In this document: positions 1-19,407 of the stretch, in pieces
Layout of the letters: the number at the start of each line of letters is the position of its first letter
How positions within the stretch are numbered: position 1 is the first letter of the stretch
DNA from: an uncultured virus (IMG/VR IMGVR_UViG_3300044621_002455)
Lineage: Duplodnaviria > Heunggongvirae > Uroviricota > Caudoviricetes
DNA: 20,000 nucleotides
Reading direction: 5' to 3' (one strand)
IMG/VR virus record: IMGVR_UViG_3300044621_002455
Notes under the pieces: model-generated
Told to the model about the DNA's origin: nothing
Seen by the model: the letters and a program-made list of their open reading frames with translations, nothing else
Databases searched by the model: none
Position numbers and translations under genes: made by a program

Positions 1-50
1 AATCTTCGTCATCTTAAGGGGCTTTTATACTGACGGCAAAAGGAGGCTAG

Positions 51-3142: not shown

Positions 3143-3144
3143 GC

Positions 3145-3828
3145 TCAAACCGCTACGACGGGCGCTTGCTGACGCATGTATTGTACGCGGCATTTGCAAT
3201 TGCTCATGCAGGCACAGCGTTGCCCTGGCATTGGCAAACTACCAATAGGCACCGCTCCCCTCGCTGCAAAATTCACGCAATCACTACAGTGCTTTGCCTG
3301 TGGGTCCAAGATGCGACGCATCAGACTGTAGCCTTGTCGTTCTTGACGAATTGCGGAACCCTCCCAGTAAGAACCTCGCACAGCCTGAGAATACATGCCG
3401 ATACGAGCAAGAGCCATGGGAGCAGAAATGCTCCCAGCCAGAAGATCGCGAGCAAAACTCTCCAAGTAACGGTATTCCGCACGAAGGCGTTGGCCGATGC
3501 GGCCCCATTCTGCAGCTTGCATCGAATCTCGTCCACCATTGCCAATGATTGCAGCTTGCGTGTGGGCAAGCTTAAGTGCTTCCCTTACGCTTCGCTGCCA
3601 TTGATCCAGCGTGATATCGCCGCTACTAAGCATGTTTGTAAGACGGCGTAACAAAGTACCAAGCTTGTTAATTCGACCATCGACCAAACTCTCAACGGCA
3701 GACTGGCTGAGAAATCGCCCGTTAGCTCCGCGATAACGGCCACTAACGGGATCGTAGTTCCATGAGGATTGATCCAGGCGAAGCTGAATGGTGGCTGCGA
3801 ATGTTGAGAGATCATTCAGGCTTTGCAT
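3145..3828 (-). CDS. Phage head morphogenesis / minor capsid protein (Mu gpF / SPP1 gp7-like)
   Basis: Directly downstream of the portal. C-terminal HCSDC...LPMPGQRCACMSNCKC Cys motif is typical of this family. Confidence 0.65.
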   Translation of the reverse strand: MQSLNDLSTFAATIQLRLDQSSWNYDPVSGRYRGANGRFLSQSAVESLVDGRINKLGTLLRRLTNMLSSGDITLDQWQRSVREALKLAHTQAAIIGNGGRDSMQAAEWGRIGQRLRAEYRYLESFARDLLAGSISAPMALARIGMYSQAVRGSYWEGSAIRQERQGYSLMRRILDPQAKHCSDCVNFAARGAVPIGSLPMPGQRCACMSNCKCRVQYMRQQAPVVAV

Positions 3829-5680: not shown

Positions 5681-5746
5681 AAGCTTTATTTATGGCCATG
5701 ATGTGTTGCTTTTATTCTAGAACCTGGCTACATTGGCACGTAGCTT

Positions 5747-6262
5747 ATGCGCACTATGGCCAGCTTTGGCATCGTTTTCCATTTCAGCGAGGAAGACAAG
5801 GAGCTTGTACGGTCAGAAGCCGTACGCAGGCAGCGTTTCAACGAGGAAAAAGGCCTAAAAGGACGCAATGGAGGGCCGGAACAGGGGGAGAAAGCTCTTT
5901 TTATTCACAAGCTTGGTGCTGCTGGCGAACTGGCAGTGGCAGATTTTCTTAATCTTCGTCAGTTTCTCTATCAAGAAACAGAAGCAAAACGAGGATCTTG
6001 CGATCTTCCGCCAGACATCGACGTGAAAACCCGTTCTCGTCATGACTACGATCTCATCTGCCAATTAGACGAGAAGCCTGGAAAAACCTTAGTGTTGGTT
6101 ACGATACAGAACAAAATCACTCTTCTCCATGGTTGGATGAAAAGTGAAGATGCAATGCAGGAACAATGGAAAAAAGATCCTGCTCGCGGAAGACCAGCTT
6201 ATTTCGTTCCACAATCTGCTTTGTTTCCTCTCATAGACCTACGCCATGCTGAAATGTTCTGA
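5747..6262 (+). CDS. Hypothetical phage protein, PD-(D/E)xK nuclease-like
   Basis: GAAGELAVADFL...D...DIDVKT pattern resembles a restriction-endonuclease-like fold. Overlaps the TerL start. Confidence 0.5.
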   Translation: MRTMASFGIVFHFSEEDKELVRSEAVRRQRFNEEKGLKGRNGGPEQGEKALFIHKLGAAGELAVADFLNLRQFLYQETEAKRGSCDLPPDIDVKTRSRHDYDLICQLDEKPGKTLVLVTIQNKITLLHGWMKSEDAMQEQWKKDPARGRPAYFVPQSALFPLIDLRHAEMF

Positions 6263-7613
6263 CTTTTCTAAGCACGCTCTCAAGCTCGATCTCTACCCTC
6301 AGCAGGCGAAGATTCTCGATAATTTCTTCCAGCCCGATAAGAGCCATGCAGTGTGGGCTCTTGGACGACGATCAGGCAAAACTGTCATGGCGGCAGTGGC
6401 ATGCGTCTATATGTGCTTCGTCTTGGAGGATGAATATCGTCGGCGCGTGAGAAAAGGCGAGAAATGGTACATCGTCACCGTCGCCAACAGTCAGGATCAG
6501 GCTCGCATTGCTCTCAACAACATCCGTCAGCTCATTCTTGACAGTCCCTTCGCTCAAGAAATTGTCCGAGAAACTGCCGACATCATTGAACTGAGCAACA
6601 ATTGCGTGTTCAAAGCTATTCCCACTTCAGGCCGCGCTGCTCGTGGCTTGGCTTGCGCTGGAGCAGTATTTGACGAGCTTGCTTTTGCCACTGAAGGCGA
6701 TGCAAATAGTGGAGGCCGTGGCATCTACGACGCACTATCTCCCGCCATCGCTCAGTTTGGAGGCAAAGGACGCATCCTTGAACTCTCTTCTCCATGGTTA
6801 ACGGACGGCATCTTCTATCAGCATTTCAAAGAAGCAAGCTCTGGCCGCTTCCCTTTCATGCAGGCTATCAACCTCCCAACGTGGGAGATGAACCCAAGCA
6901 TTTCGCAAGAGTTTCTTGACACAGAGAGACAGCGCGATCCAGAGAAGTTTAAAGTGGAATATGGGGCGCAATTCGCGAGCAATCTTTCAGCCCTTGTTGC
7001 AAGCGATGTTGTTGATGCCTGTGTTGATGACCGTCGAGCGGCTCTACCACCCCGCCCTGAATTCCAAGGCGCTTACGTTCTTGCCCTTGACCCCGCCCGT
7101 GGTGGCGTTGGCCGTGACGACTACACTGCTTGCATTGTTCACTATGAGAACGGCACGCTAGTCGTAGACAAATTTCATTCGTTCGCTGCTGATTTTGAAA
7201 TCAATGGAAGGATGGAAGTAAATATCAATGCAGTGGAAGATTGGATTAAAGAGCAGCATCGTCTATATATTTTTGACACCATCGTGATGGACCAGTTCAA
7301 CAGTGCTGGCACCATTCAAAGCCTTGCCAGCGACCTTCCCATCACGGAACTCACTTGGACCGTCAGCTCCAAAATGAAAGCATTCAGCAAGATGCGAGAG
7401 TTGTTTAATGCAGGACAGATCAACGTCTATCGCCATGAGAAAGCAATCATGCAATTAAAGAATCTCACTGTCATCTATAAGCCCAGTGGACAATGGAGTG
7501 TGACTGGTGGCAAGGCTTCGGGAATTGACGACTTGGCATTTGCAATGGCAGGTGCAATTCTTGCCGCTAGTAAAGACGACGACATTGGCTGGATTGAGAG
7601 CTTGATTTCATAG
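6246..7613 (+). CDS. terL: Terminase large subunit
   Basis: Walker A GRRSGKT, Walker B AVFDELAF, coupling motif LSSP, PTWEMNP, EYGAQF; RNase H-like nuclease acidic residues LALDPA, MDQFN, DDLAFA. Confidence 0.92.
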   Translation: MLKCSDFSKHALKLDLYPQQAKILDNFFQPDKSHAVWALGRRSGKTVMAAVACVYMCFVLEDEYRRRVRKGEKWYIVTVANSQDQARIALNNIRQLILDSPFAQEIVRETADIIELSNNCVFKAIPTSGRAARGLACAGAVFDELAFATEGDANSGGRGIYDALSPAIAQFGGKGRILELSSPWLTDGIFYQHFKEASSGRFPFMQAINLPTWEMNPSISQEFLDTERQRDPEKFKVEYGAQFASNLSALVASDVVDACVDDRRAALPPRPEFQGAYVLALDPARGGVGRDDYTACIVHYENGTLVVDKFHSFAADFEINGRMEVNINAVEDWIKEQHRLYIFDTIVMDQFNSAGTIQSLASDLPITELTWTVSSKMKAFSKMRELFNAGQINVYRHEKAIMQLKNLTVIYKPSGQWSVTGGKASGIDDLAFAMAGAILAASKDDDIGWIESLIS

Positions 7614-7657
7614 ACAATTCTCCTAGTATGATTTTCAAACAATAGTTCTTCCATGGG

Positions 7658-7924
7658 ATGAATAATTGCAATTTATCTATGCAAGAGACTCAGTTTCTCA
7701 TTGCACTCCTAATAAATGGCACAACTAGCAAGCAAACGTGCCTTCAGCTTCTCGCCGCCGAACACCTCTACATTCCCACGCTTCTGCCCAAGCTCAAGGC
7801 TCATGCAAAACAGCTAAGACAAGCCGAGCTTGTTGCGTTGGAAAGCGATGGCGGAGAGGAGGATGACTATTGCCGAGACCGCAGCTTTCCCGAAGAGCAG
7901 TCCCTGAGGGAATATGACGCCTAA
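7658..7924 (+). CDS. Hypothetical protein
   Basis: 88 aa ORF after TerL, preceded by a TATGAT -10-like box near 7627. The start may be ATG 7679. Confidence 0.5.
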   Translation: MNNCNLSMQETQFLIALLINGTTSKQTCLQLLAAEHLYIPTLLPKLKAHAKQLRQAELVALESDGGEEDDYCRDRSFPEEQSLREYDA

Positions 7925-7933
7925 GTCAAGGCG

Positions 7934-7942
7934 TGTTATGAT
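7934..7942 (+). promoter_or_regulatory. Extended -10 promoter (TGnTATGAT)
   Basis: tgttatgat lies immediately upstream of a hairpin-dense non-coding stretch. Confidence 0.5.
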
Positions 7943-7948
7943 TTCAAA

Positions 7949-8133
7949 GCTTTCGCGAAGCACGCTGGCCAGCGTTGGATCAACAAGGAACAATGGTTTC
8001 AGGCGCCATTGTTTCGTAAAGCGATGTTGCACATCGCTGCCCTGTGCAACAGGGCCTTCAGGGGAAGAGGGGAGTAGGCCCACCTGCTCTGAAATGCTGT
8101 ACAAGGCGGATTGAAGCCCCGCTCAGCGCCCTC
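7949..8133 (+). ncRNA. Candidate multi-hairpin structured RNA
   Basis: At least seven consecutive stem-loops and no convincing ORF. Follows an extended -10 box. Confidence 0.5.
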
Positions 8134-8170
8134 AACTTCCTCTAGCCTCCCCTTTGCTACACTGATGGTA

Positions 8171-8220
8171 CGTTCGGCCTTCGGGCTGCATAATCACTTG
8201 AGGATGGAACGGGCCTCAAG
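8171..8220 (+). promoter_or_regulatory. Glutamine riboswitch, Downstream-peptide (glutamine-II)-like
   Basis: CGTTC...GGAACG P1 stem; internal hairpin ggcc-ttcg-ggct; pseudoknot cttgagg (8197-8203) / cctcaag (8214-8220). Upstream -10-like TACACT; downstream DUF4278-like peptide. Confidence 0.75.
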
Positions 8221-8236
8221 GTTATGGAGAACCATC

Positions 8237-8356
8237 ATGAACCCACTCGCCCTCATCAAGCAGCAGCTTGAGAAAGCAGCTCGTCTGCGTGAAGCACAAA
8301 TGGCTTCGCTGGTCTATCGCGGCGTCGCTTATGTGCCCAAGCCTCATTGGTTTTGA
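8237..8356 (+). CDS. DUF4278-like small protein (39 aa)
   Basis: MNPLALIKQQLEKAARLREAQMASLVYRGVAYVPKPHWF contains the L.YRGV.Y signature; GGAGA RBS at 8226. Confidence 0.75.
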   Translation: MNPLALIKQQLEKAARLREAQMASLVYRGVAYVPKPHWF

Positions 8357-8384
8357 CCTGCTATTGGTTCTGAACTAACTGAGC

Positions 8385-8410
8385 AAGGGGGAGCTTAAGC
8401 TCCCTTTTTT
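8385..8410 (+). terminator. Intrinsic terminator
   Basis: aagggggagc-ttaa-gctccctttttt, between convergent genes. Confidence 0.7.
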
Positions 8411-8610
8411 AATGCTTGAACGCAACTAGATGGTTGCCCATTATTCCAATGGCGAACGACGCCAGAAATTATCATCGCGTTTGTAATTAAATACGAAGCG
8501 AAAATAAATGTGCGGACAAGAGCAACTCTGTCCGCCTCCTTATGACAATTGCTCTCTTTCGCTCCCAGCGCCTTCGCCCATACTCGCCACGCTCCTTTCT
8601 TCCTGCTCAT
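8395..8610 (-). CDS. Small hypothetical membrane protein
   Basis: 71 aa; WRVWAKALG.K...AD.VA.VRT followed by a hydrophobic helix ending in RHW. Confidence 0.6.
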   Translation of the reverse strand: MSRKKGAWRVWAKALGAKESNCHKEADRVALVRTFIFASYLITNAMIISGVVRHWNNGQPSSCVQALKKGA

Positions 8611-8788
8611 AAATCCAAGCTTTTAGCTCTGTCACATACCCTCTAATGATGGCAGCTTTTTCAAGATGCCACTGGTCCATGGTGAGAAAATATTGCGCAT
8701 TGTGCCAATCAATGGCTCGTAACGATTGATAGATGATGGGATTGAGCGGTTCACGCAGGGGAGTATTGAAGGTCCGGCGCTCGGTCAT
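8540..8788 (-). CDS. Hypothetical protein (82 aa)
   Basis: ATG 8788 (MTERRTFNTPLREP...AID.HN...WH.EKA) overlaps its neighbours in operon fashion. Confidence 0.6.
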   Translation of the reverse strand: MTERRTFNTPLREPLNPIIYQSLRAIDWHNAQYFLTMDQWHLEKAAIIRGYVTELKAWIYEQEERSVASMGEGAGSEREQLS

Positions 8789-9308
8789 TGGAGGAGAAAT
8801 AAAGCATCGCCTCGTCCCAATGAACAGGCGCAAAGTTGTGTTGTTCTACACAACAATTAAAATAGCGCCTATCTAAGCTTCCATCAGGCATTCTTACATT
8901 ATGAGAATGTAAATGCCCGTGAATATTTCCTTTAAATCGCTGTTCAAACAGTTCTGGATGGAGGGGAATATGGCTCATCATGAATTCATGGTGGTAAAAA
9001 CATCCACGAATGTCGTCGAAATATTGCGCGTAGTCTTGCAGCTTGAAAATATCGTGATTGCCGCGCACTAGCACTTTCCTTCCATTGAGCTGTTCCAGAA
9101 TCTTTAAGCCGCGACGGGCAATAGCCACGTCCCCCAGCACGTAAATCCTATCTTTTGCCCCCACTTTCTTGTTCCATTGTTCCACCATGAACGCATCACC
9201 TTCTGCTGCGTCCTTAAAGGGACGCAGCTTCTTGCCATCAGGCCTTAAAAACGTATAGGCCTTATCGTGACAGAAGTGATTGTCTGACGTGAGCCAGCAA
9301 TTGACCAT
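8751..9308 (-). CDS. Calcineurin-like metallophosphoesterase
   Basis: SDNHF, LGDV, GNHD, SHIP and HGHLH motifs. Confidence 0.9.
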   Translation of the reverse strand: MVNCWLTSDNHFCHDKAYTFLRPDGKKLRPFKDAAEGDAFMVEQWNKKVGAKDRIYVLGDVAIARRGLKILEQLNGRKVLVRGNHDIFKLQDYAQYFDDIRGCFYHHEFMMSHIPLHPELFEQRFKGNIHGHLHSHNVRMPDGSLDRRYFNCCVEQHNFAPVHWDEAMLYFSSNDRAPDLQYSPA

Positions 9309-9323
9309 GGTTCAATGGAGAAA

Positions 9324-9392
9324 CGGCGCTGCTGGGAATCGAACCACAGGATTCTAGGCTATGTGCCTAACGTGTGCCAACACTTCAGGACC
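9324..9392 (-). pseudogene. Degenerate tRNA-like element (CAT at the anticodon position)
   Basis: Minus strand folds as a cloverleaf: acceptor GGTCCTG/CAGCGCC (one mismatch), D arm GTGT-TGGC-ACAC, anticodon arm TTAGG-CACATAG-CCTAG, T loop GGTTCGATTCC. Lacks U8, U33 and an encoded CCA. Confidence 0.55.
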
Positions 9393-9495
9393 AGATGGCC
9401 CAAGCGTGAAGCGATTAACAAGAGCTAATCGCTTCAGAGGCTTAGGCTCTGTCTGCCCGATGCTAGCGCAGAGCGGGAACTCGCTCAATATAGCG

Positions 9496-10230
9496 TCAAG
9501 CCCTGCCGTAGGAAGGCAAATTAGTGTTGGCCGCCTCAAAGAACGCAGGCATCCGGCTCCGTTGCGTTTCTGCCAGGCCATCTGCTTTGCCCTTCTCAAA
9601 CAAGCTGTCACTCTGCTTGAGCCAGAAATCTTTGTTCAACCATTTGTTCTCGCTGGCACCCAGCGCATCAAATGCCCACAATGCAGTGGCGCGACGCAGC
9701 TTATTCAAGCTCTGACCAGCATCCTCCCCTAGTTCCTTAGCCACAAGACTATGCACGCCAACGTGGGTAATCTCGTCACGGCTAATATCAGCAGCCACAG
9801 TGCGAATGCCCATATCGCCATTAAAGCGGAAGAACGGCAGCACAACAAAGAAGATGCTGCGCTCCAAAATGGCAGCTTTCAAAATGGGGTGGGCAGGATG
9901 CTCCTGCCATGCATTCAGAATGCCTTCCACTTCCTTCTCGGCCTTTTCATCGGCACCATGGGCAGCAACAATGTAGTTGAGGGCCTGATCATGACGCTGT
10001 TCATCTTCCTGGTTATGACGAAGGGCTTCCACAACGCCAGGCGTGGAAGGCAGATCACGCTCTAGCCCCTGCTCCAGAAAGTCCTTCACAGGCAGTTCCA
10101 AATGACGCAGTGCCAGCAGCTTACCAAGAGTGGCCTCGCTGCCTTCCTGCACAACGCCCTTGTCCACGGCAACGGCCTGCCAAGGCCGTTTTTTAGCAAT
10201 CATCGACAAATAAGGACTCTTCGTCGTCAT
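9496..10230 (-). CDS. nrdB: Ribonucleotide reductase class I beta subunit (short ferritin-like, cyanophage type)
   Basis: LELPV, DEQRH, LERSIFF and DEITH di-metal ligands; immediately downstream of the alpha subunit. Confidence 0.8.
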   Translation of the reverse strand: MTTKSPYLSMIAKKRPWQAVAVDKGVVQEGSEATLGKLLALRHLELPVKDFLEQGLERDLPSTPGVVEALRHNQEDEQRHDQALNYIVAAHGADEKAEKEVEGILNAWQEHPAHPILKAAILERSIFFVVLPFFRFNGDMGIRTVAADISRDEITHVGVHSLVAKELGEDAGQSLNKLRRATALWAFDALGASENKWLNKDFWLKQSDSLFEKGKADGLAETQRSRMPAFFEAANTNLPSYGRA

Positions 10231-10263
10231 GGTCTTACTATCATTCAGTGGGTGTTGAGGAGA

Positions 10264-10290
10264 AAGGGGCCTTTGGGCCCCTTCTTTTTT
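10264..10290. terminator. Hairpin / intrinsic terminator between the RNR genes
   Basis: aaggggcc-tttg-ggcccctt followed by ctttttt. Confidence 0.55.
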
Positions 10291-10291
10291 G

Positions 10292-11737
10292 TCATTCAGC
10301 GCAGGCAGCGCAGTATCCAGCCTCTACGGAACAAGACGCAGAATCCTGCTCGGTCTCTTCATTGAGACCAAACATGCTCTTAAAGTCGTCGTCCAACGCA
10401 GCATATGCATCATCCTTGCGCTGAGTGTCAGGCAGGACTTGCAAGCTGTAATAGAGGCTCGTCTGAGGAGAGTCTAGCCAATCCTTCAGGAACACTTCGT
10501 CATAATTCACAATGTCTGACCATGAATTAAACGAATAACCATGGAAGAGGCCAGTGCGTTGGTACAACTGAACTAGTCCATTGGCAGTCTTGAAGAAAGC
10601 TTCCCAGCCCACTTCCGCAGCCGTTTCCACTTCGCCATAGTCAAAGCTCTCCACGCCAAACGTGCCGCTATCGCGATCTACAGTCCGAGCAATGGGAGGA
10701 GCAATTTCAGGCGTGGTGGTGAAGCCCCGCGTGTCTAAGTAGCGATAGGAGCACGATGCAGTGGGAGCAATGCAAAAAGCACGTTCCATTCCATGCTCAC
10801 GAGCAACTTCCGCAGCCCTCTGAATGCCTTGGTCAATTTGCCAGACGGCTTCTCCAGAAATGGTGTTCTTCCAGAAATCATTCCAGCCACGAGCATCTTC
10901 TGCAAGGAATGCTTCCAATGCATTGCCAAAATCTTCATAGCTAATGCCATGGATGGCAAGGAAATTAGCTAGGCCCAACACGCCCAAGCCAATTTGCTTG
11001 TCAATGACAGGAGGCAGATATTCGCCAGTGTCGCCAACGCCAGTACCAGGATGCAGCTCACAAAGCTGCATCATGCCCTCGACAAATGCTCCTTGAATGT
11101 TATCCAGCGTGCATGCGCCCAAATTAACGTGCTGAAGAAGACAAGTGCCACGATGCGGAAGATATACCTCTAAACAGACATTGGCCCTGATGCGTTCTCC
11201 ACGATTGTTATATCGGATTTTGTTGAGCCAGAGATCGCCAGAAGAGATGGCACGAAGACAGGCATTAATCAGTTCAGGAGACGATGCAGAAAGAAAATTG
11301 TCATCAACGTTTAAACAACGCTTCACCCAAGGAAGCTCACTACGTGATGCACTAACAAATTCAATGGCATCAGGGCTTGTATAGTCAAGATGCAGCACTA
11401 CGGCACCATTCTTGTATAAACCACCCCTACGCAAGATTTCATTAAGCGTGGAATAAATCTTCCCAAAACTTACTGGCCCGCTTGCCACGAGGCCTTTGCC
11501 ATTTTCAGCGCCCCTTTCGCGCAGAGAAGATAAATGAACAGCGACCCCCGCACCATTGCGCAAACCATGGCTAACAAACCGCCAAGACGCTTCAATGCCA
11601 TCTTCGCCCTCCATTGAATCTTCTACGTTGAACACCGTGCAACTCACAGGCAGGCGTCCATCAGGACTACCCAGCCAATCTTGAACGCGCCCCGTGCGGG
11701 CAATTGGCTCACATTTTGCCTTTTCCTTCAGCTTCAT
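10292..11737 (-). CDS. nrdA: Ribonucleotide reductase class I alpha subunit (minimal, no ATP cone)
   Basis: PVSCTV, NVCLE catalytic N-x-C-x-E, CLLQHVNL, IAPTASCS, SLYY tyrosine dyad and C-terminal CAAC. Start taken at ATG 11737. Confidence 0.9.
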   Translation of the reverse strand: MKLKEKAKCEPIARTGRVQDWLGSPDGRLPVSCTVFNVEDSMEGEDGIEASWRFVSHGLRNGAGVAVHLSSLRERGAENGKGLVASGPVSFGKIYSTLNEILRRGGLYKNGAVVLHLDYTSPDAIEFVSASRSELPWVKRCLNVDDNFLSASSPELINACLRAISSGDLWLNKIRYNNRGERIRANVCLEVYLPHRGTCLLQHVNLGACTLDNIQGAFVEGMMQLCELHPGTGVGDTGEYLPPVIDKQIGLGVLGLANFLAIHGISYEDFGNALEAFLAEDARGWNDFWKNTISGEAVWQIDQGIQRAAEVAREHGMERAFCIAPTASCSYRYLDTRGFTTTPEIAPPIARTVDRDSGTFGVESFDYGEVETAAEVGWEAFFKTANGLVQLYQRTGLFHGYSFNSWSDIVNYDEVFLKDWLDSPQTSLYYSLQVLPDTQRKDDAYAALDDDFKSMFGLNEETEQDSASCSVEAGYCAACAE

Positions 11738-11822
11738 AAGACGACAAAAGGGGACCATGGTCCCCCGAGAATCAACAGAAGCAGGCTAGCGCAGGGAAGC
11801 GATGGTGAAGAGGAAATTAAGC

Positions 11823-12014
11823 TTAATCACAGAGTCCCTCCTCGTCGCTCACGGCTAAGAGGTCGCGCACGTAAAGCTTCGCTTCATTAGTCGTGCGGAA
11901 ATAATGCGGTTGTCCGTCAATAGCAGCAAACCATTGAAATTCTGGCTTACTAAAACATGGCCACAATTTATACGGGCCAATATTAAATGGCTGGCGATCA
12001 GGAAGGCCCCACAT
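11823..12014 (-). CDS. Hypothetical protein
   Basis: 63 aa ATG ORF with protein-like composition, co-oriented with the RNR genes. Confidence 0.55.
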   Translation of the reverse strand: MWGLPDRQPFNIGPYKLWPCFSKPEFQWFAAIDGQPHYFRTTNEAKLYVRDLLAVSDEEGLCD

Positions 12015-12717
12015 AGAAGCTTTGCGAAGATCATCTCACGCTAGTCGTTATCAATAATTGCACAAGTGCCATTTAATACAAAATGCAGCTTTCCCATTGA
12101 ATCCTTAAGAAACTTGGAAGAATTTAGTCATAATGTTCACCACGATACCAAAAACGCCACATTTGAGCCACAGTGCGAGATACGATACCTAAGCGGAGCC
12201 ACTACTAAAGAGCTTAAGCGGCTCCGCGCCTAGCCTGCTAGACGACGCTTCTAAGCGAAAGCTTCAAGCGAGCGGAGTCCCCCGAAGGGACGAAGCGTCT
12301 ACTGAGAAAAAAGGCTAGACAAGCTGCTCATTCATGACGAGTGGAGCCCCAAAGGCGGAACGTTCTTCTCTGAGCAGCGAAAAACAAAAAGGCTGATCCA
12401 GATCCTATGTAATGGATTGGGCATACTATGTCTCGCCAATTGGAACGAGCTAAAAGCTTTTCCATCTCAAGAAGGTCTAGCAACGGCGGCCGTCAGGGCC
12501 GCCTTTTCAAGAAAACAGACGATGGAGAGGAGGGTGATGCAAATTGTTTAGAGCTGGCATATTGTCTTGTTTCGCTTTTGTTTATCATTCCGCCCCCTTT
12601 GGGGCTTCATTCGTCTTGCTTATTGTCTTGAAATGCCTCAAGCGGCGCCTGCGGCTTGCTTTCGGCATAGTGCTACTGGGCTTTTGCTGGTTAGCATTTA
12701 GCAGTTACGAAAAGGTT

Positions 12718-13212
12718 ATGGAAGCTAGCTCAAAGCGTTGTTCGGTTTGCAAGGAGATCAAAAACCTCTCGTTGTTTGGTGTTCGCAAAAAAGCTAAAGA
12801 TGGTCGCAATTATCGCTGTAAAGTTTGCCAGTCAAAATCGAGCAGAGACAGTCGGTCCAAAAATCCAGTGGCAACACAAATTGGGACTATGGTCAAAAAA
12901 GCTAAAGAGCGCTCTATCTTGAAAAAATTGCCCTTTGACATTGATTCCGAATACCTCCTTGATCGGGCTCCTTCCCATTGCCCAATTTTCAATATTCCAC
13001 TGGAATGGTCGTGCTTTCGTTCAGGGAAAAAAGGCCCGCTCCCCAATAGCCCATCCCTAGACCGCATCGTCCCGGATCTTGGCTACGTCAAAGGAAACGT
13101 ATGGATTATTAGCCATAGGGCAAATACAATCAAAAGCAATGCCACTCACGAAGAACTAAAACTAGTGGCAAACGCCGTAGGCAAAGCAATAGTCGATAGC
13201 CTAGAATTTTAG
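12718..13212 (+). CDS. HNH endonuclease with N-terminal zinc finger
   Basis: KRCSVCKEIK...CKVC, CPIF, and SPSLDRIVPDLGYVKGNVWIISHRANTIKSN (DR-type HNH). Start at ATG 12718. Confidence 0.85.
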   Translation: MEASSKRCSVCKEIKNLSLFGVRKKAKDGRNYRCKVCQSKSSRDSRSKNPVATQIGTMVKKAKERSILKKLPFDIDSEYLLDRAPSHCPIFNIPLEWSCFRSGKKGPLPNSPSLDRIVPDLGYVKGNVWIISHRANTIKSNATHEELKLVANAVGKAIVDSLEF

Positions 13213-13468
13213 ACTAGGCATAAATACTTAGGCGAAAAAAAAGGGGATGAAAAATGGCGCCACTTTTCGGGGAGGTATGCCCACATGCGCCTTGCCGCAT
13301 AAGCCGGTTACTGCTCTATGCGCCTACACGCATAAGCGCATAACAGTACGGTTGTACCATCAGAAAAACTAATGTTACGAAATGTTACGATTGCGGGAAT
13401 CTGGCGAAATTTCGACTAGATTTGGGCATGAGACGGGCGACCGTCTCGCCGCCCCTCGACAACCTGCC

Positions 13469-13621
13469 ATGACCTCCCCCTCGATCGCCTCCCTGTTCGC
13501 CGCTCGCCTTCGCGAGCTCGAGGAGCAGGATCGCCAGAGCCAGGCGAAAACAGCCAAAACACTAGCTAGCGTCAAGGCTACGATCGCCGAGCTCGAGAGC
13601 CTAGAGATCCCTCTAGACTGA
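13469..13621 (+). CDS. Small coiled-coil protein (50 aa)
   Basis: MTSPSIASLFAARLRELEEQDRQSQAKTAKTLASVKATIAELESLEIPLD; preceded by a GTTACGAAAT motif and followed by a terminator. Confidence 0.6.
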   Translation: MTSPSIASLFAARLRELEEQDRQSQAKTAKTLASVKATIAELESLEIPLD

Positions 13622-13626
13622 TAGCT

Positions 13627-13653
13627 AAAAGCCGACCTTAGAGGTCGGCTTTT
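13627..13653. terminator. Bidirectional intrinsic terminator
   Basis: aaaagccgacct-tag-aggtcggctttt, between convergent units. Confidence 0.8.
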
Positions 13654-13820
13654 CTATTCTTGCCATTATGACGCTATGCGCATAGGAGATATTCTCTCGA
13701 TCAGCAGAGAAGCGAGACAGGAGCGAGAGGGGAGAGCATGAGAAGGCCTCTCAACCTAAGGAGGCTGAGAGGCTAGGGAGAGAGGCCAGGAGAGGCCTCT
13801 GAGAAGGAGAAGGAGGGAGG

Positions 13821-14066
13821 TTATGGGAGGGGGAGGCGAAGCTCCTTGAGGCGCTCCTGATTTGAGCGAGAGCGAAGGAGGAGAAGCCAGAGGCCGGGGA
13901 GGCGAAGGGAGAGGAGGGAGAGCCAGCCAGAGCGGCGAGACCAGGAGGAGAAGCGAGAGAAGAGGGGGAGGCGAGGGGGAGGAGAGAGGAGGAGGAGAAA
14001 GGAGCGGCGAGAGAGGGGGAGACAGCGAGGGAGAGGAGAGGAGGGGAGACAGCGAGGGGAGAGCAT
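13821..14066 (-). CDS. Hypothetical S/L/P/R-rich protein
   Basis: ATG ORF with the same MLSP start as neighbouring island ORFs; low complexity. Confidence 0.4.
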   Translation of the reverse strand: MLSPRCLPSSPLPRCLPLSRRSFLLLLSPPPRLPLFSRFSSWSRRSGWLSLLSLRLPGLWLLLLRSRSNQERLKELRLPLP

Positions 14067-14080
14067 GAGAGGGAGCGCTC

Positions 14081-14302
14081 CTAGTGACGATCAGAGAGGA
14101 GCCAGACAGAGGAGGGAGGGAGGGGAGGCTCTCCCCTGAGGGAGCGCTCTCGAGCGAGAGCAGAGGCTCGAGCCTCAGAGGCGAGGCGCTCGCAGTAGGA
14201 GCGCAAGACGGAGGAGAGGAGAGGAGAGAGCTCGCCAGAGGAGACAGAGCCGAGGAGAGCGCCAGAGGAGGAGCGAACAGAGCGAAGGGGAGCCGAGGTC
14301 AT
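14081..14302 (-). CDS. Hypothetical protein (73 aa)
   Basis: Preceded by the island's palindrome plus CTTCTCTTCTC-ATG leader. Confidence 0.6.
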   Translation of the reverse strand: MTSAPLRSVRSSSGALLGSVSSGELSPLLSSVLRSYCERLASEARASALARERSLRGEPPLPPSSVWLLSDRH

Positions 14303-14323
14303 GAGAAGAGAAGAGAAAGGAGC

Positions 14324-14343
14324 GGGAGGCCTTGAGGCCTCCC
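14324..14343. repeat. Intergenic palindrome, copy 1 (GGGAGGCCTTGAGGCCTCCC)
   Basis: One-mismatch copy of the palindrome at 15826 and 16835. Confidence 0.85.
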
Positions 14344-14367
14344 TAGGAGGAGAAAGGCGAGAGCTTC

Positions 14368-15486
14368 TCAGGAGCGAGAGAAGGCGAAGGAGCCACCATC
14401 GGGGAGAGCTTGCCAGGAGCCAGAGCCGAGAGGGAGAGCGAAGCGAGAGGCGCTCTCAGGCTTCGCTCCTCGCGAGCGCTTGAGGCGAAGGAGCACAGCG
14501 AGGCCAGAGAAGCCAGGAGCGGGAGAGGGATCGAGCATCCTTAAATCATTCGCGTCGCCATTGATGCACTGCAGGAGCGCCTCTCGGCCGTGCTGATCGC
14601 GAAGGAGGAGCGAGACAGGGAGAGGCTCCCCCTTAGGGAGGAGGATTGGCACGGCAACAGAGAAGCCGGCCTCTGCTGCGTCAATTGCTCGAGAGGAGCA
14701 GCGCTCCTGATCAGCAGCGAAGGAGGCCGTCACGTGCACGCCGGCCTCGCGAGCGGCGAGGAGGCCAGCAGCGCCGAACAGGGGAGATTTCGCATAATCG
14801 TAGAGAGAAAGGAAGGGGACAGAGGCGAGCGCCTCGGGGATAGTGCGGATGCCAGAGGGGATAGGAGCGCCGAACAGCTCAGAGAGGAGAGCGGCCTCCT
14901 CTGTTGAGAGGCGAGCGGCGAGCCAGGCCTCCTGCCATGGGAGCTCCTGGGTTCCGTTGAGCCTCAGAGCGAAGGGGAGGCCGAGGCGGCGAGCCTTGCG
15001 ATAGGAGAGGCCTGCAGCCCATAGGAGGCAGCGAGCGAAGGCCTCACGATCGGCGAGAAAGGCGAGGGAGCGGCGAGAGCGGCAGAGCTGGACAGCAGTT
15101 GAGAGCCCCCCATGGCCAGAGAAGGCGAGGCAGAGATCCTCACAAGATGCCGTCTTAAAAGGGCAGGCATCGAACAGGAGAGCGCGAGCCGTGAGGCCTT
15201 CGCGATCGGCAAGCTCTCTCAAGCCAGGGAGCTCCCCTCTCACGGCAACAGAGCCAGGCAGAGAAGGAGACAGAGCGCGAGCCAGGGAGCGCGAGGGAGG
15301 GAGATGCAACAGAGCAGAGAAGGCGAGGCCGCTCCCCTTCGCGAGCTTCGCGTTTGAGCTCCCATAGGTGAGGAGAGAATCAAAGGAGAGGCCGAACCGA
15401 GCAAGGAAGGGGGAGAGATCCTCAGGAGGCCGAGGAGCGCGGCCGAGCTTAAGGGGAGCGGGAGGAGCCAGGAGAGCGGCAGGCAT
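14368..15486 (-). CDS. GP88-like phage protein (Cys-cluster, radical-SAM-like)
   Basis: SNAKLAK, CP.....C...CL..SGHG, LRLNGTQE, LYDYAK, GFSVAV, INGDANDLRMLDP and LRLK match the Gene product 88 family pattern. Confidence 0.7.
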   Translation of the reverse strand: MPAALLAPPAPLKLGRAPRPPEDLSPFLARFGLSFDSLLTYGSSNAKLAKGSGLAFSALLHLPPSRSLARALSPSLPGSVAVRGELPGLRELADREGLTARALLFDACPFKTASCEDLCLAFSGHGGLSTAVQLCRSRRSLAFLADREAFARCLLWAAGLSYRKARRLGLPFALRLNGTQELPWQEAWLAARLSTEEAALLSELFGAPIPSGIRTIPEALASVPFLSLYDYAKSPLFGAAGLLAAREAGVHVTASFAADQERCSSRAIDAAEAGFSVAVPILLPKGEPLPVSLLLRDQHGREALLQCINGDANDLRMLDPSPAPGFSGLAVLLRLKRSRGAKPESASRFALPLGSGSWQALPDGGSFAFSRS

Positions 15487-15549
15487 GATCAACAGAGAAG
15501 AGAGGGGACAGAGAGAAGGCCTCCCCCTTGAGAAGGAGAGGCCAGAGCC

Positions 15550-15795
15550 TCAGGAGAGGCGAGAGCGGCGATTGTCTCTCTGAGCGAGGCCGTCACCGAG
15601 AGCAGCGCCAGAGAGGAGGAGAGAAGTGACGGCAGAAGTGGAGAAGAGAATAAAGGGGAGAGCCAGGGGAGCGGCCTCCTTAGCAGAGGGAGCCTCAGAG
15701 GCCCATTTCGCGTAGGAGAAGGAGCAGAGGCCGAATAGGACAGAGCCGAGGCCGAGGAGGCCAGAGAAGGCGAAGGAGGAGAGAGGGGAGCGCAT
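15550..15795 (-). CDS. Small two-helix membrane protein (81 aa)
   Basis: ATG 15795 after the palindrome and CT leader; two hydrophobic segments. Confidence 0.6.
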   Translation of the reverse strand: MRSPLSSFAFSGLLGLGSVLFGLCSFSYAKWASEAPSAKEAAPLALPFILFSTSAVTSLLLSGAALGDGLAQRDNRRSRLS

Positions 15796-15825
15796 GAGAA
15801 GAGAAGCGAAGGAAGGGGAGGAGAA

Positions 15826-15847
15826 AGGGAGGCCTCGAGGCCTCCCT
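15826..15847. repeat. Intergenic 22-bp perfect palindrome, copy 2
   Basis: AGGGAGGCCTCGAGGCCTCCCT followed by AGG. Confidence 0.9.
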
Positions 15848-15856
15848 AGGAGGAGC

Positions 15857-16012
15857 TCAGAACCGAGCAACAGAGAGGGGGAAGGAGACGGAGCCTTGAG
15901 CGTGTCCACGCTCCTTATGGGCAGCAGAGAAGGAGGGGAAGGAAGGGAAGCCAGGGAGAGGCTCTCCCGAGCGTGCATCGATAATACGGAAGGAGACAGA
16001 GCGGCGAGCCAT
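15857..16012 (-). CDS. Hypothetical protein (51 aa)
   Basis: MARRSVSFRIIDARSGEPLPGFPSFPSFSAAH...; follows a TATTGT promoter and the CT leader. Confidence 0.6.
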   Translation of the reverse strand: MARRSVSFRIIDARSGEPLPGFPSFPSFSAAHKERGHAQGSVSFPLSVARF

Positions 16013-16104
16013 GAGAAGAGAAGCGAGAGAGCGAGGCGATCGCTCGCCTCTGAAGAGACAATAGAAAGGAAGGAGAGGGAGGCCAGAGCCTCCCCTCCCT
16101 TTTG

Positions 16105-16281
16105 TCACAATCCGTCACAATCGGGAAGGAGCTCCTCAAGGTCAGAGAGAAAGGCCTCGAGCGTGGCGGAGGGGAGCCACCTAGCGAGCTCCTCGAGCAC
16201 AAGAGGGAGGCCAGAGGAGGCGAGGCCGAGCTCCTCGGCTCGATCGAGGAGGAGAGCACGTTGATAGGAGGGGAGAGCCAC
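16105..16281 (-). CDS. Hypothetical acidic helical protein (58 aa), not in the ORF track
   Basis: GTG start overlapping the upstream TAG: MALPSYQRALLLDRAEELGLASSGLPLVLEELARWLPSATLEAFLSDLEELLPDCDGL. Confidence 0.6.
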   Translation of the reverse strand: MALPSYQRALLLDRAEELGLASSGLPLVLEELARWLPSATLEAFLSDLEELLPDCDGL

Positions 16282-16586
16282 TAGGAAGGAGAGCAGAGAT
16301 CAGCAGAGCAGACAGAGGGGGGAAGCCCAACAGAGAGCGGCACGCCATGGCGAAGGCGAAGGAGGGAGCGCCTCTCGAGGAGGAGCCTCTCGATCGCTTC
16401 ACCATCCCCAGAGAGGCGAGGGAGAAGGCGCTCGATCGTGGCGAGGCGCTTCTCCTCTGGCGAGAGCTCAGAGCGAGGAGGGAGCGAGAGCACGGCCTCG
16501 AGCTCAGAGGGGGAGAACTGGCGGCCCTCGCTCTCAACAGAGGCGAGGAGCGAGGCGAGCTCAGAGGGGGAGAGGGGGGAGAGCAT
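16281..16586 (-). CDS. Hypothetical protein (101 aa)
   Basis: ATG ORF tiling with neighbours; internal SPSEL repeats. Confidence 0.6.
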   Translation of the reverse strand: MLSPLSPSELASLLASVESEGRQFSPSELEAVLSLPPRSELSPEEKRLATIERLLPRLSGDGEAIERLLLERRSLLRLRHGVPLSVGLPPSVCSADLCSPS

Positions 16587-16595
16587 GGCAGAGCC

Positions 16596-16796
16596 TCAGG
16601 AGAGGGGAGAGAAGAGAAGGGAGAGAAGCTCCTCGAGAGCCTCCTCGAGCTCCTCACGATCAACAGCAGAGAGAGGAGCGGGAGAGGCGAGGCGCTCCTC
16701 GAGCTCGCGAGCGTAGAGAGCGGCCTCACGGCGAGAGGAGAAGGAGAAGCGAGGCCAGGAGAGATCAGAGGCGAGGAGCTCGTGAGAGGAGGCCAT
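16596..16796 (-). CDS. Hypothetical acidic protein (66 aa)
   Basis: ATG after the palindrome and CT leader; E-rich amphipathic helices. Confidence 0.6.
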   Translation of the reverse strand: MASSHELLASDLSWPRFSFSSRREAALYARELEERLASPAPLSAVDREELEEALEELLSLLFSPLS

Positions 16797-16834
16797 AGGA
16801 AGGAGAGCGAGAGAACAGAGAAAGGAAGGAGAGG

Positions 16835-16856
16835 AGGGAGGCCTCGAGGCCTCCCT
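16835..16856. repeat. Intergenic 22-bp perfect palindrome, copy 3
   Basis: AGGGAGGCCTCGAGGCCTCCCT followed by AGG. Confidence 0.9.
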
Positions 16857-16868
16857 AGGGGGAGAGCC

Positions 16869-17237
16869 TCAGAGGAGGCCGAGGCGAGCGGCTCGCTTGA
16901 GCAGAGCAGAGCGGGAGGCCTTCGCCAGAGAAGAGGAGCTCTCGCCAGCTTGAGCCAGAGCCTCGATCAACAGAGCGCGAGGAGAGGCCTCAGAGAGAGG
17001 CTCGGGCAGAGAAGCGGCGAGGCGCTCGAGGAGAGCAGCAACAGAGCGAAGGAAGGGAGCGAGGCGGCCTCGCTCCTGCCAGAGGCGAGAGGCGAGAGCA
17101 TGGCAGAGAGCCAGAGAGAACAGGAGAGCCTCGAGAGAGCGAGAGGCGATCGCCTGCCATGGCAGAGAAGAGAGCGCCTCGATCGCGTCAGACAGAGGAG
17201 GGAAGGAGGGGGATCTATGGGGGGAAGGAGCGAGCAT
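16869..17237 (-). CDS. Hypothetical helical protein (122 aa)
   Basis: ATG 17237 with CTTCTCTTCTC leader downstream of the TATTGT promoter at 17287-17292. Confidence 0.6.
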   Translation of the reverse strand: MLAPSPHRSPSFPPLSDAIEALSSLPWQAIASRSLEALLFSLALCHALASRLWQERGRLAPFLRSVAALLERLAASLPEPLSEASPRALLIEALAQAGESSSSLAKASRSALLKRAARLGLL

Positions 17238-17286
17238 GAGAAGAGAAGCGAGGGGACAGAGGCCAGGAGGAGCGGCCTCGATCGAG

Positions 17287-17347
17287 ACAATAAAGAGAAG
17301 AGGAGAGGAGGCCAGAGGCTCTCTGGCCCATTGAAATATTTCGTAAC
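17287..17347 (-). promoter_or_regulatory. Early-type promoter module: GTTACGAAAT - hairpin - TATTGT
   Basis: Similar architecture at 16058-16121, 18888-18938 and 19355-19403; only the TATTGT box is visible at 19987-19992 (window edge). Confidence 0.6.
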
Positions 17348-17408
17348 GTATGTGCCTATGCGCCTTGGCGCATAAAAGCATAGGCGGCCAAGCATGACTG
17401 GTTGCAAT

Positions 17409-17613
17409 ACGTATCAGTATCAACGAACTGGCATGATCAGTATCAACAACAGACTGCGCTTGTGATCATGATCATGATCAAACGGTGCTATCAGTACGTA
17501 TCAGGAATCAATGCCTGATAACGATCAGTATCAAGAATTGGGCCTGATCATGATACGTATCACGGCCGCCGCTGCTACGGTTCCGTATCAGTAGCGATAG
17601 TACAAATGTACTA
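17409..17613. repeat. ATCA (GTATCA / TGATCA) motif array
   Basis: 15 ATCA on the + strand in about 180 bp; palindromes TGATACGTATCA and TAGTACA-AA-TGTACTA. Confidence 0.85.
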
Positions 17614-17641
17614 GAAAAATGGCCTATTTAAGCGCTTCTAA

Positions 17642-17695
17642 TATACCGCATTTCAGCAAGTCCCTATACCGCCTTTTAGCAAGTCCCTATACCGC
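17642..17695. repeat. 23-bp-period tandem repeat
   Basis: AGCAAGTCCCTATACCGC at 17655 and 17678, plus a partial TATACCGC at 17642. Confidence 0.85.
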
Positions 17696-17716
17696 TTCCC
17701 ATCGTTTCCAAAATTT

Positions 17717-17875
17717 TTACCAGCCATTCCCATCAAAAGCGGCCTTGATGGCCGCTTCTTCACTTTCAAACGGCCCACCAACAATTTGCTCGTCGCTGTC
17801 GCTGTAGTAATACCAACCTTCAATAAGTTCTGTGCCTTTGCAGCAGTCTTCGTTAAAGAAATCAATGAGGATCAT
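17717..17875 (-). CDS. Hypothetical protein (52 aa)
   Basis: ATGA overlap with the upstream gene; GWYY...GPFESEEAA motif common in small phage proteins. Confidence 0.65.
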   Translation of the reverse strand: MILIDFFNEDCCKGTELIEGWYYYSDSDEQIVGGPFESEEAAIKAAFDGNGW

Positions 17876-18174
17876 GCCAGAATCTCCTGAAGCCTGCCCC
17901 ACATCCATTGTTCCCTAGTGTCAGGGCGCAGCAGCTCATAGGCTTCATGATCCACGATGGCATCACCAGCACTGTCCACGTGCCCTTCAATATCGAGCTG
18001 CCAGATGCCCTTGCAGGCCCCATCAGCCCCATAAATGCCAATGATGTGCTCCCTGTCTTCCATGGCAAGCCTCACGTGGAAAATAAGCTGCTGGAGCGAA
18101 GCGGCCTGGTAGGAGCCCTTAGTGCAAGAGAAATACGGGCCGTTGTCTTGGAAGGTCTTGATGGTGGTGATCAT
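17872..18174 (-). CDS. Hypothetical protein
   Basis: 100 aa; ATGA-coupled on both sides. Confidence 0.7.
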   Translation of the reverse strand: MITTIKTFQDNGPYFSCTKGSYQAASLQQLIFHVRLAMEDREHIIGIYGADGACKGIWQLDIEGHVDSAGDAIVDHEAYELLRPDTREQWMWGRLQEILA

Positions 18175-18395
18175 TGGTCGTAAGTGGCGAGAGGTTCTTC
18201 TTCGATGGAAAGGGCAAGTTGCTTGAGCTGGTCTAGAGCTGCTCTGATCACATATGCTCTACTCACGGAAGCTTCATCAAGAAGCTCATCAAGAGCGTGG
18301 ATTTCGTCATAGAGTTCTTCAATGGAAGAGAAAGTACGTGCAGCGTAGGGCACGCCATATTCATCTTCCGAGACAAAACTAACGGGAAAAGGCAT
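18171..18395 (-). CDS. Hypothetical acidic protein
   Basis: 74 aa; tiles in the operon. Confidence 0.7.
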   Translation of the reverse strand: MPFPVSFVSEDEYGVPYAARTFSSIEELYDEIHALDELLDEASVSRAYVIRAALDQLKQLALSIEEEPLATYDQ

Positions 18396-18397
18396 GA

Positions 18398-18610
18398 TCA
18401 GCCGTTAATGCAAGAGTTGAAGAATTGTTCTGCTTCCCACTTGTGGTCGAAGAGACCGTAGGAAGTGGTGTGGAGCTGGAATTCTGTGATGCGTTCCCAG
18501 CCATAGGCTTCCCACTTGCGGGAGCCATCAGCGCAGAGATAGGACTGCACGCCGTAGCCGCTGTGCTGAGCCTGGCGATCAGCTTCAAGCTTTTCGAGGT
18601 AGGAAGACAT
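18398..18610 (-). CDS. Hypothetical protein
   Basis: 70 aa; tiles in the operon. Confidence 0.7.
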   Translation of the reverse strand: MSSYLEKLEADRQAQHSGYGVQSYLCADGSRKWEAYGWERITEFQLHTTSYGLFDHKWEAEQFFNSCING

Positions 18611-18619
18611 GATTGGTTC

Positions 18620-18847
18620 TCAATAGTTGGTCTGAAAAGAGCTATGTCGCTTTGCCAGCGGAAGCTGCAGCGTGCCAATTGTCCAGCTCTGATATTCAGA
18701 AGTGGCGCCAGGCTTGCCGAAAACGAATGTTTCAACAAACACTTCATCATGCTTAGCGTCATAGCTATAAGCGCGGCAAACACCAGTGGCAAGGTGATGG
18801 GTTTTGAGGGTTTTGCCGTTTTTGAGGTCTTGCAGGAAGTCGGTCAT
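18620..18847 (-). CDS. Hypothetical protein
   Basis: 75 aa; first gene after the promoter module at 18888. Confidence 0.65.
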   Translation of the reverse strand: MTDFLQDLKNGKTLKTHHLATGVCRAYSYDAKHDEVFVETFVFGKPGATSEYQSWTIGTLQLPLAKRHSSFQTNY

Positions 18848-18932
18848 TGTTGGTTAATCGAAAGGGAGGCTCGCGCCTCATGAAAGAACAATAAAAGAGA
18901 AGCGGGGCGTTTCCGCCCCTTTGCAACAATGC

Positions 18933-19313
18933 TTAACAGAAGGCCGTGCGTCCGTTGGAATAGGCCCACCACTGCTTGGTACCTTCGCTGGCTTCCTGCT
19001 CCCATGCTGCCCACTTCTCAGGCACAGGCTCAGAAACAATGCGGGTGCCAGCGGGCACCTTAATGGGGCCAGAGAGCGTGCTGATGGTCCATTGATCCAT
19101 CACAGGGCCATTGATGTACCAGCTCTGGCAAACGTGCAGCAGGCCAATCAGCTCAAGGGAGCGAGGATCCTCGGCGCCAGCTCTCTGCTGGGTGGGGAAA
19201 GGCTGGTGCCAGTTCGGCACGGTGACAGTGATCTTGATGCGATCCAGCTCTTCAAATTTGGTCCAGTAGCCAGGGCCGGTGAGCTGCTCGACGGAGTGGT
19301 TGATGATTGCCAC
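18933..19313 (-). CDS. Hypothetical protein (126 aa, GTG start)
   Basis: A GTG at 19313 lies after the TATTGT box at 19355-19360 and a pyrimidine leader. Confidence 0.65.
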   Translation of the reverse strand: MAIINHSVEQLTGPGYWTKFEELDRIKITVTVPNWHQPFPTQQRAGAEDPRSLELIGLLHVCQSWYINGPVMDQWTISTLSGPIKVPAGTRIVSEPVPEKWAAWEQEASEGTKQWWAYSNGRTAFC

Positions 19314-19407
19314 GGAAGGAAAGCGAAGAAAGGGCGTCGCCGCCCATGCAGAGAACAATACAGCATGACGGGGCCTGTGACGAGGCCCGTTACATTTCGT
19401 AATATTC

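Follow-up and report, generated by a model that had tools for sequence, protein, structure and literature searches.

The hexamer array at 17411..17590 (minus strand) in the genome of a lake cyanophage is predicted to be an accessory, interchangeable module of multiple protein-binding sites, operator-like in character; from sequence comparison, we put the probability of this reading at about 0.45. The array consists of 15 TGAT-hexamers forming ~7 composite sites with a pitch of ~29 bp. The operator reading draws on the shortness of the sites, their constant pitch, a selection that appears to act on the motif and not on the spacers, the position of the array, the exchange of cassettes at that position and the apparent dispensability of the array. 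Short protein-binding repeats arranged in arrays are familiar; the particular feature of this one is an unassigned motif, TGAT-N4-ATCA or TGATAC-TGATCA at a pitch of 29 bp, and none of the papers we found describes the control region in which it lies. All positions are those of the window, by which we mean the whole stretch of 20,000 nucleotides that was analysed.

The initial annotation had described 17409-17613 as a dense, non-coding run of ATCA rich in GTATCA and TGATCA and holding a perfect palindrome, and a recount of these positions agrees. The + strand contains 15 ATCA and 7 TGAT, as well as seven GTATCA, one TGATAC, five TGATCA and six GATC. With 117 ATCA on the + strand of the whole 20-kb window, 1.06-1.2 would be expected per 205 bp, so that the Poisson tail for at least 15 is ~1e-12; all other 205-bp windows in a scan of the 20 kb had four at most. 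The pattern TGATNNNNATCA (TGAT-N4-ATCA) was matched five times in the 20 kb, each time inside the array, against 0.46 expected in the window, and none of 200 shuffles reached five. One of these sites is the perfect 12-bp palindrome TGATACGTATCA (17551..17562), and the remaining four start at 17434, 17463, 17469 and 17516. The tandem triplet of TGATCA at 17463..17480, TGATCATGATCATGATCA, forms an 18-bp palindrome with three GATC sites (TRF: period 6, 3.0 copies, 100% matches). A gene for a repetitive peptide was also considered. Between 17381 and 17640, each of the six frames is interrupted by 4-9 stops, with 44 aa as the longest open stretch; no ORF of at least 40 aa extends over the array, TTG-started extensions reaching only 17423. 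Every frame thus being closed over the array, it is not a repetitive-peptide gene, and its description as non-coding stands. A blastn search with 17300-19300 against 50,697 phage records returned no match, and a 15-mer of the array gave at least 120 single chance matches to genome contigs of unrelated taxa, which was uninformative.

Read on the operon-sense (minus) strand, the array is built of seven TGATAC, five TGATCA and one each of TGATCG, TGATTC and TGATAG. In minus-strand array coordinates, the hexamers start at 7, 35, 47, 64, 70, 87, 94, 104, 117, 123, 129, 152, 158, 175 and 181. They form groups of two or three (TGATAC-GTATCA-TGATCA; TGATAC-TGATCG-TTATCA; TGATCA three times; TGATAC-TGATCA; TGATAC-TGATAC) separated by spacers of 11-17 bp. 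The distance from one hexamer start to another, taken over five arrays, has its peaks at 6, 23, 29 and 35 bp and so points to composite sites with a pitch of ~29 bp. Three metagenome contigs (L083, L093 and L097) are made of the repeat unit TGATCA-N6-TGATCA-N11, that is 29 bp.

Arrays occur at the same position in other viral contigs (L013, L021/L022, L055 and L068) and in metagenome contigs (L082, L083, L084, L088, L093 and L097), and versions made of TGATCA only were found in the L014-L017/L044 group and in L025. Six lineages (the window, L013, L068, L088, L082 and L083) align without gaps over ~170 columns, with pairwise identities between distinct lineages of 0.67-0.83. Conservation was 0.82 in the hexamer columns, which were defined on the window, compared to 0.63-0.66 in the spacers. 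When the window was left out, the three remaining independent lineages (L013, L068 and L082) gave 0.77 for hexamer columns and 0.60 for spacers, and 5 of 183 circular label shifts reached this hexamer-spacer difference. Contigs from four other lake runs, whose studies may come from one campaign, contain an array identical to the window's at every position and without a joint. Conservation of motif density in related phages had been put forward as a check on the array: the array is colinear in these six lineages, and 70 of 86 relatives are without it.

The array is also lost cleanly. The metagenome contig L081 corresponds to L088 minus exactly 214 bp of array, the flanks differing at ~12 of ~400 positions, and L083 and L084 differ by several TGATCA-N6-TGATCA-N11 units while the contigs otherwise match. 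Variable unit number, clean loss and absence from most relatives would all fit a functionless or selfish expansion, in which the hexamer and the 29-bp units multiply by slippage or unequal recombination and are tolerated because the slot is non-coding. This explanation appears unlikely in view of six gap-free lineages at 0.67-0.83 identity, of hexamers more conserved than their spacers and of the identical sequence in four other runs.

The window is an S-CBS4-like cyanosiphovirus of lake water. The 24 sequencing runs containing the stretch are all environmental metagenomes, and the best 9 of the 24 are lake water. The window carries a portal gene (3812-5680, minus strand), a TerL gene (6246-7613, plus strand) whose product shares 76% identity with its counterpart in Synechococcus siphovirus S-CBS4, the closest isolate, and genes for ribonucleotide reductase and endonuclease VII. 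Complete relatives measure 68-74 kb. One of them, G003, has a TerL 99% identical to that of the window, and closes into a circle on a 127-bp assembly overlap; an integrase and an AAA_25 helicase are among its gene products. S-CBS4 contains neither the array nor the neighbouring T-poor island in 1-14000 and 52000-69420, its homologous place being without the array module, and the titles and abstracts of the S-CBS4 literature apparently make no mention of this control region. The S-CBS4 record (NC_016766; L003/L004) opens and closes within one gene, the counterpart of the window's 100-aa gene (17872-18174); this gene is split over the start and end of the record and unannotated, and because the record is cut inside it, the record's ends are arbitrary.

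The control region has a layout common to all relatives: the 52-aa gene, iterons and LexA box lie before, and a palindrome and the GP88 operon after. Upstream are two early genes on the minus strand, the 100-aa gene (17872-18174) and an acidic 52-aa gene (17717..17875) that always precedes the non-coding control region and was detected by tblastn at 38 of 42 viral loci and at 64 metagenome loci. Along the minus strand there follow the iterons, the LexA box, the array, the TATGCGC palindrome, an HLR1-like element, a hairpin, TATTGT and the operon. The iterons are 23-bp direct repeats of the GGGACTTGCT..GCGGTAT type (17642..17695; 2.3 copies by TRF), which immediately follow the stop codon of the 52-aa gene and number 3-7 copies in relatives (~7 in L082). 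The palindrome block TATGCGCC..GGCGCATA (TATGCGC..GCGCATA; 17348..17385) is kept in relatives, and a related TATGCGC..GCGCATA block, 82% identical over 28 nt, is found at the other island/operon border (13275-13343). TATTGT at 17287..17292 (minus strand) is conserved and is a candidate -10 box of the operon; a block of the form ..CTATTGTCTC.. or ..TTTATTGTCTC.. is conserved before the first operon gene in relatives. This first gene (16869..17237, minus strand, ATG at 17237) encodes 122 aa and lies inside the island. An attP site was considered for the region and rejected, the G003 integrase being ~27 kb away.

Two elements of the control region resemble sites of host regulators. The LexA box AGTACAAATGTACT (17599..17612) matches the cyanobacterial consensus AGTACWNWTGTACT, a 14-bp palindrome (PMC3091678), at 14 of 14 positions. 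Allowing one mismatch, this consensus is matched twice in the window compared to 0.10 expected; the second copy, with one mismatch, is at the other island border (13345-13358). At 29 of 37 viral loci, a LexA-type box was located in the first 1 kb beyond the 52-aa gene, and in two complete relatives such palindromes are almost confined to the control region. This confinement suggests, from sequence, SOS control in an integrase-carrying phage family. In G003, the control region has three perfect LexA boxes within a span of 70 bp. The second element is the direct repeat GTTACGAA-AT-ATTTCAAT (17330..17347, minus strand), with three mismatches to the HLR1 pattern that defines RpaB sites (PMC6525291), and we infer RpaB binding there from this resemblance. 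Paired octamers of this kind lie between genes, for example at 13371-13391, 16104-16121, 17330-17347 and 19389-19406. At up to three mismatches, the window has seven compared to 1.8 expected, a number reached by 2 of 200 shuffles; they may be phage promoter elements using the light/redox regulator of the host.

The place occupied by the array holds other elements in sister phages. Six of 53 metagenome loci and the viral loci L006 and L036 have, in the same slot, 5-6 matches to ATTCTCAAT, a sequence that forms the core of AAATAAATTCTCAATAAAT, the FurA consensus of Anabaena (PMC4005646). These loci (L006, L036, L095, L096, L108, L126, L129 and L131) often carry the element as TGAGAATCATTCTCA, and all but one (five of the six from metagenomes) also carry 3-4 LexA-like boxes, mostly interleaved with it. 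Another six of the 53 metagenome loci have at least six TGATCA; ATTCTCAAT is not matched in any of these, and none has more than one LexA-like box. L042 contains long runs of GTTACATTTC-type repeats resembling HLR1. The presence of LexA-like and Fur-like cassettes at the position of the array indicates that the slot takes cassettes of the transcription-factor type. The LexA box itself is broken in L055, L081 and L088, of which L055 and L088 still have the array. A tentative extension is that the slot would act as a regulatory socket into which cassettes (LexA boxes, Fur-like boxes, HLR1-like repeats or, here, the TGATAC/TGATCA array) are plugged and swapped, so that the operon would be wired to different host signals. 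In that case the array would serve as operators for a regulator not yet described, of host or phage origin, with the site TGAT-N4-ATCA and possibly sensing methylation. The control region gathers motifs of host regulators (LexA and HLR1-like, and Fur-like in sisters) next to a selectively maintained array whose motif is unassigned, a combination that makes it a concrete probe for a new DNA-binding specificity.

The initial annotation had listed a multivalent protein-binding array among several possibilities. We keep this part as the best reading, on the indirect evidence of the conserved hexamers and of palindromic or tandem sites of 12-18 bp at a regular pitch of ~29 bp; the parts tied to the island or to DNA entry were not supported. 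Under the operator reading, the array would offer ~7 composite sites in double-stranded DNA, one every ~29 bp, each made of two or three TGAT(A/C)(C/A) hexamers that partly form TGAT-N4-ATCA palindromes. A dimeric or oligomerising DNA-binding protein, from the host or the phage, would fill these sites cooperatively, and the occupied array would tune transcription from the control region, which follows the early genes and lies ahead of the GP88 operon. Because six hexamers contain GATC, occupancy could depend on adenine methylation. We infer the protein binding, the effect on transcription and the role of methylation alike; as a promoter scan found no sigma-70-like site in the control region, the regulatory role is read from position.

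Candidates for the binding protein were sought among known operators and neighbouring genes. Fur recognises, in E. coli and B. subtilis, three GATAAT units or the 7-1-7 arrangement TGATAAT-N-ATTATCA. The array resembles Fur operators, as a lead and no more, in being built of 6-bp units that adjoin one another, point in both directions and end in TGATA/TATCA; in the GAT register its units GATACT and GATCAT agree with GATAAT at 5 of 6 positions, and Fur-like ATTCTCAAT or TGAGAATCATTCTCA boxes stand at the same position in sister phages. It differs in that its palindromes are 6-0-6 or 4-4-4, that is 12 bp and 3 bp shorter than the 15 bp of the 7-1-7 form, and are richer in C; array loci have no ATTCTCAAT match at up to one mismatch. 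The hexamers matched neither the 7-1-7 geometry nor any other known operator tested, and no NtcA site (GTA-N8-TAC) was seen by eye in the array. No ORF family within ~6 kb was exclusive to array loci. An RHH-like gene (18171-18395; weak PF01402 match, E 1.6e-3) was rejected as the source of the binder since it does not co-occur with the array, being absent from array-bearing L021/L022 and present in array-less L006-L012. A partition site was also compared. The F centromere sopC is a tandem array of 43-bp units that each contain an inverted repeat, and the array analysed here is similar in having tandem units of constant pitch (here 29 bp) and variable number, each with a short palindrome; no ParA or ParB gene was found among the 49 G003 proteins scanned, which include an integrase instead.

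The iterons raise the possibility that the array is an auxiliary element of a replication origin, of the lytic or plasmid type. In such an origin, the iterons would bind an initiator, and the GATC hexamers would act like the GATC repeats in P1 oriR, which are sensitive to methylation, or as loading sites of the phage's AAA_25 primase-helicase. The region is large, non-coding and repeat-rich, and is almost the only place with LexA-type palindromes in two complete relatives; the iterons adjoin the array (2.3 copies, and 3-7 in relatives). As in an oriR-type origin, which in P1 has five iterons and five Dam sites (NC_005856 annotation), 23-bp direct repeats stand beside short GATC-bearing repeats in one non-coding region. 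GATC density in G004, another complete relative, peaks in the control region with 7 per 300 bp, G003 encodes an AAA_25-type helicase, and a local minimum of cumulative GC skew falls 0-3 kb from the region (in G003, G004 and several loci). The iterons and this skew change would suit an origin as well as they suit an operator. Other features of iteron origins, namely a DnaA box, an adjacent rep gene and an AT-rich stretch, were not found here. The DnaA box TTATCCACA has no match at up to one mismatch in 17300-17750, the three one-mismatch matches elsewhere in the window being at chance level. At 44% G+C, the array is not AT-rich. The neighbouring ORFs gave no Rep-family match, most of them belonging to no family, and the G003 helicase is encoded ~12 kb away. 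Set beside the usual pattern of iteron origins, at least three direct repeats of 17-23 bp at a pitch of ~22 bp, the neighbouring 23-bp repeats fit (2.3 copies here and 3-7 in relatives), and the array itself has composite sites at a pitch of ~29 bp. The iterons remain in L081 while the whole array is deleted, 70 of 86 relatives lack the array, and the complete relative G003 has a single GATC in its control region. Finally, the skew pattern is a 10-kb patch matching the early-gene block and may therefore reflect transcription. Taken as a whole, an origin role for the array, the main alternative to the operator reading, seems doubtful to us.

The bias in hexamer orientation bears on the question of whether the array could act as RNA. 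A LexA-controlled promoter, with a TACTAT that overlaps the box, would then produce a leader or small RNA of ~300 nt that would carry 15 UGAU motifs, end at a hairpin and a U/C-rich run at ~17297-17330, and serve as a multivalent sponge or an attenuator. The ratio of TGATAC to GTATCA on the operon-sense strand is 7:1 in the window, 4:1 in L013, 5:0 in L082 and 4:1 in L083; the minus strand folds better than its shuffles (z -3.9, 0 of 100 as good), and the hairpin and pyrimidine run precede the first operon gene. Against this, the bias is gone in L055 and L068 (2:3), a stable fold is expected of any mixture of TGAT and ATCA, and L055 and L088 keep the array with a broken LexA box. There was no Rfam family for the stretch, a scan of 12800-18600 with Rfam 15 at E ≤1 giving only a chance-level match at 13503-13655, and none of the runs containing it is recorded as RNA. 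The palindromic TGAT-N4-ATCA sites point to recognition of duplex DNA, and we regard an element acting at the RNA level as improbable.

The hexamer TGATCA is also that of the P1 packaging site, and a headful packaging signal of this type, with the small terminase binding the TGATCA/G clusters and cutting gated by methylation, was weighed against the operator reading. P1 pac is bound by PacA and regulated by Dam, its cutting depending on methylation. In NC_005856, it comprises four TGATCA at 90722-90756 and three TGATCG/TGATCA at 90852-90875, with cuts at 90804-90813 between the two clusters. The array (five TGATCA and one TGATCG, six hexamers in 205 bp) and P1 pac (seven in 160 bp) are alike in having 6-7 copies of TGATCA/G in 160-200 bp, an irregular spacing of 6-15 bp and a GATC in each. 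The assemblies of relatives are circular, as expected of permuted headful genomes, and the S-CBS4 record is linearised inside a gene. The two sites differ in arrangement. Between its two clusters, P1 has a cleavage region of ~95 bp that is free of hexamers and includes an IHF site, whereas in the array the hexamers are spread evenly without such a central region, the largest gap is 28 bp, and TGATCA is mixed with TGATAC at an even ~29-bp pitch. Furthermore, P1 pac lies inside the small-terminase gene; the array is ~10 kb from TerL (6246-7613) and from the 171-aa gene upstream of TerL, is missing in 70 of 86 relatives, among them G003 with its 99% identical TerL, and is deleted in L081. Contig ends, which are ends of contigs and not of reads, do not pile up in the array in four runs. 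We therefore consider a packaging role very unlikely.

The operon downstream of the array ends with a GP88-family gene (PF17338, phrog_1617; 14368..15492, minus strand). A relative of its product (L032:3980-4888) has three invariant cysteines, C58, C64 and C68, and its AlphaFold model has a pLDDT of 83.7. The 23 best VIA matches of the model are all radical SAM enzymes, at Z 5.1-7.0, weak scores at which, as the tool warns, similarity may mean only a common arrangement. From this model, the GP88 family may be an Fe-S/SAM enzyme. A PDB sequence search with a GP88 relative gave no match, and Foldseek against the PDB gave nothing at E ≤1e-3; a literature search on PF17338 found no paper. Siphoviruses of freshwater picocyanobacteria are abundant, with 1056 proteins at E ≤1e-5 from the search for GP88 alone, and their regulation is almost unstudied. 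The L088 and L081 types form a natural plus/minus pair with which the coupling of a radical-SAM-like operon to host state in a temperate cyanophage can be examined.

The T-poor island (~13700-17330, genes on the minus strand) lies ~80 bp from the array, with the TATGCGC palindrome and the HLR1-like element in between, and the initial annotation had linked the two. On that account the array would be an injection stop, a roadblock, a decoy or a heavily modified patch functionally coupled to the island. The array does adjoin the island in the window and at five further loci, one of which (L005) is the same phage; its GATC density would allow dense methylation, and one may speculate from the radical-SAM-like model that the GP88 protein could be a modification enzyme. 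We tallied both features at 86 loci, each with 700 bp or more of sequence beyond the 52-aa gene (L082 and L083 were too short and were left out). Ten loci have the array only, seven the island only, six both (the window and L005, the same phage, included) and 63 neither. Array and island assort independently, and the array is not coupled to the island: a role linked to the island is contradicted by the seven loci that keep the island without the array and by the ten with the reverse.

The same data bear on DNA entry. The T5 injection stop signal consists of dense direct and inverted short repeats in non-coding DNA. The array shares these repeats and its non-coding location, and nothing beyond the repeats speaks for such a function here: the array is not terminal, relatives assemble into circles, and close relatives can do without the array, which is deleted in L081. 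No fixed genome end is nearby, G003 closing into a circle on its 127-bp overlap. The first gene of the island (16869-17237) and the GP88 gene have homologues of normal composition at the same place in L021 and L068, so the island is neither foreign DNA nor an inserted first-entry segment. Taking these points with the tally, we consider any role coupled to the island highly improbable. From its composition and gene homology, the island is the same operon recoded to an A-poor sense strand. Homologues of normal composition are present at the same position in L088 as well. The recoded state was seen at 13 of the 86 loci, and the G001 and L005 contigs break inside the island.
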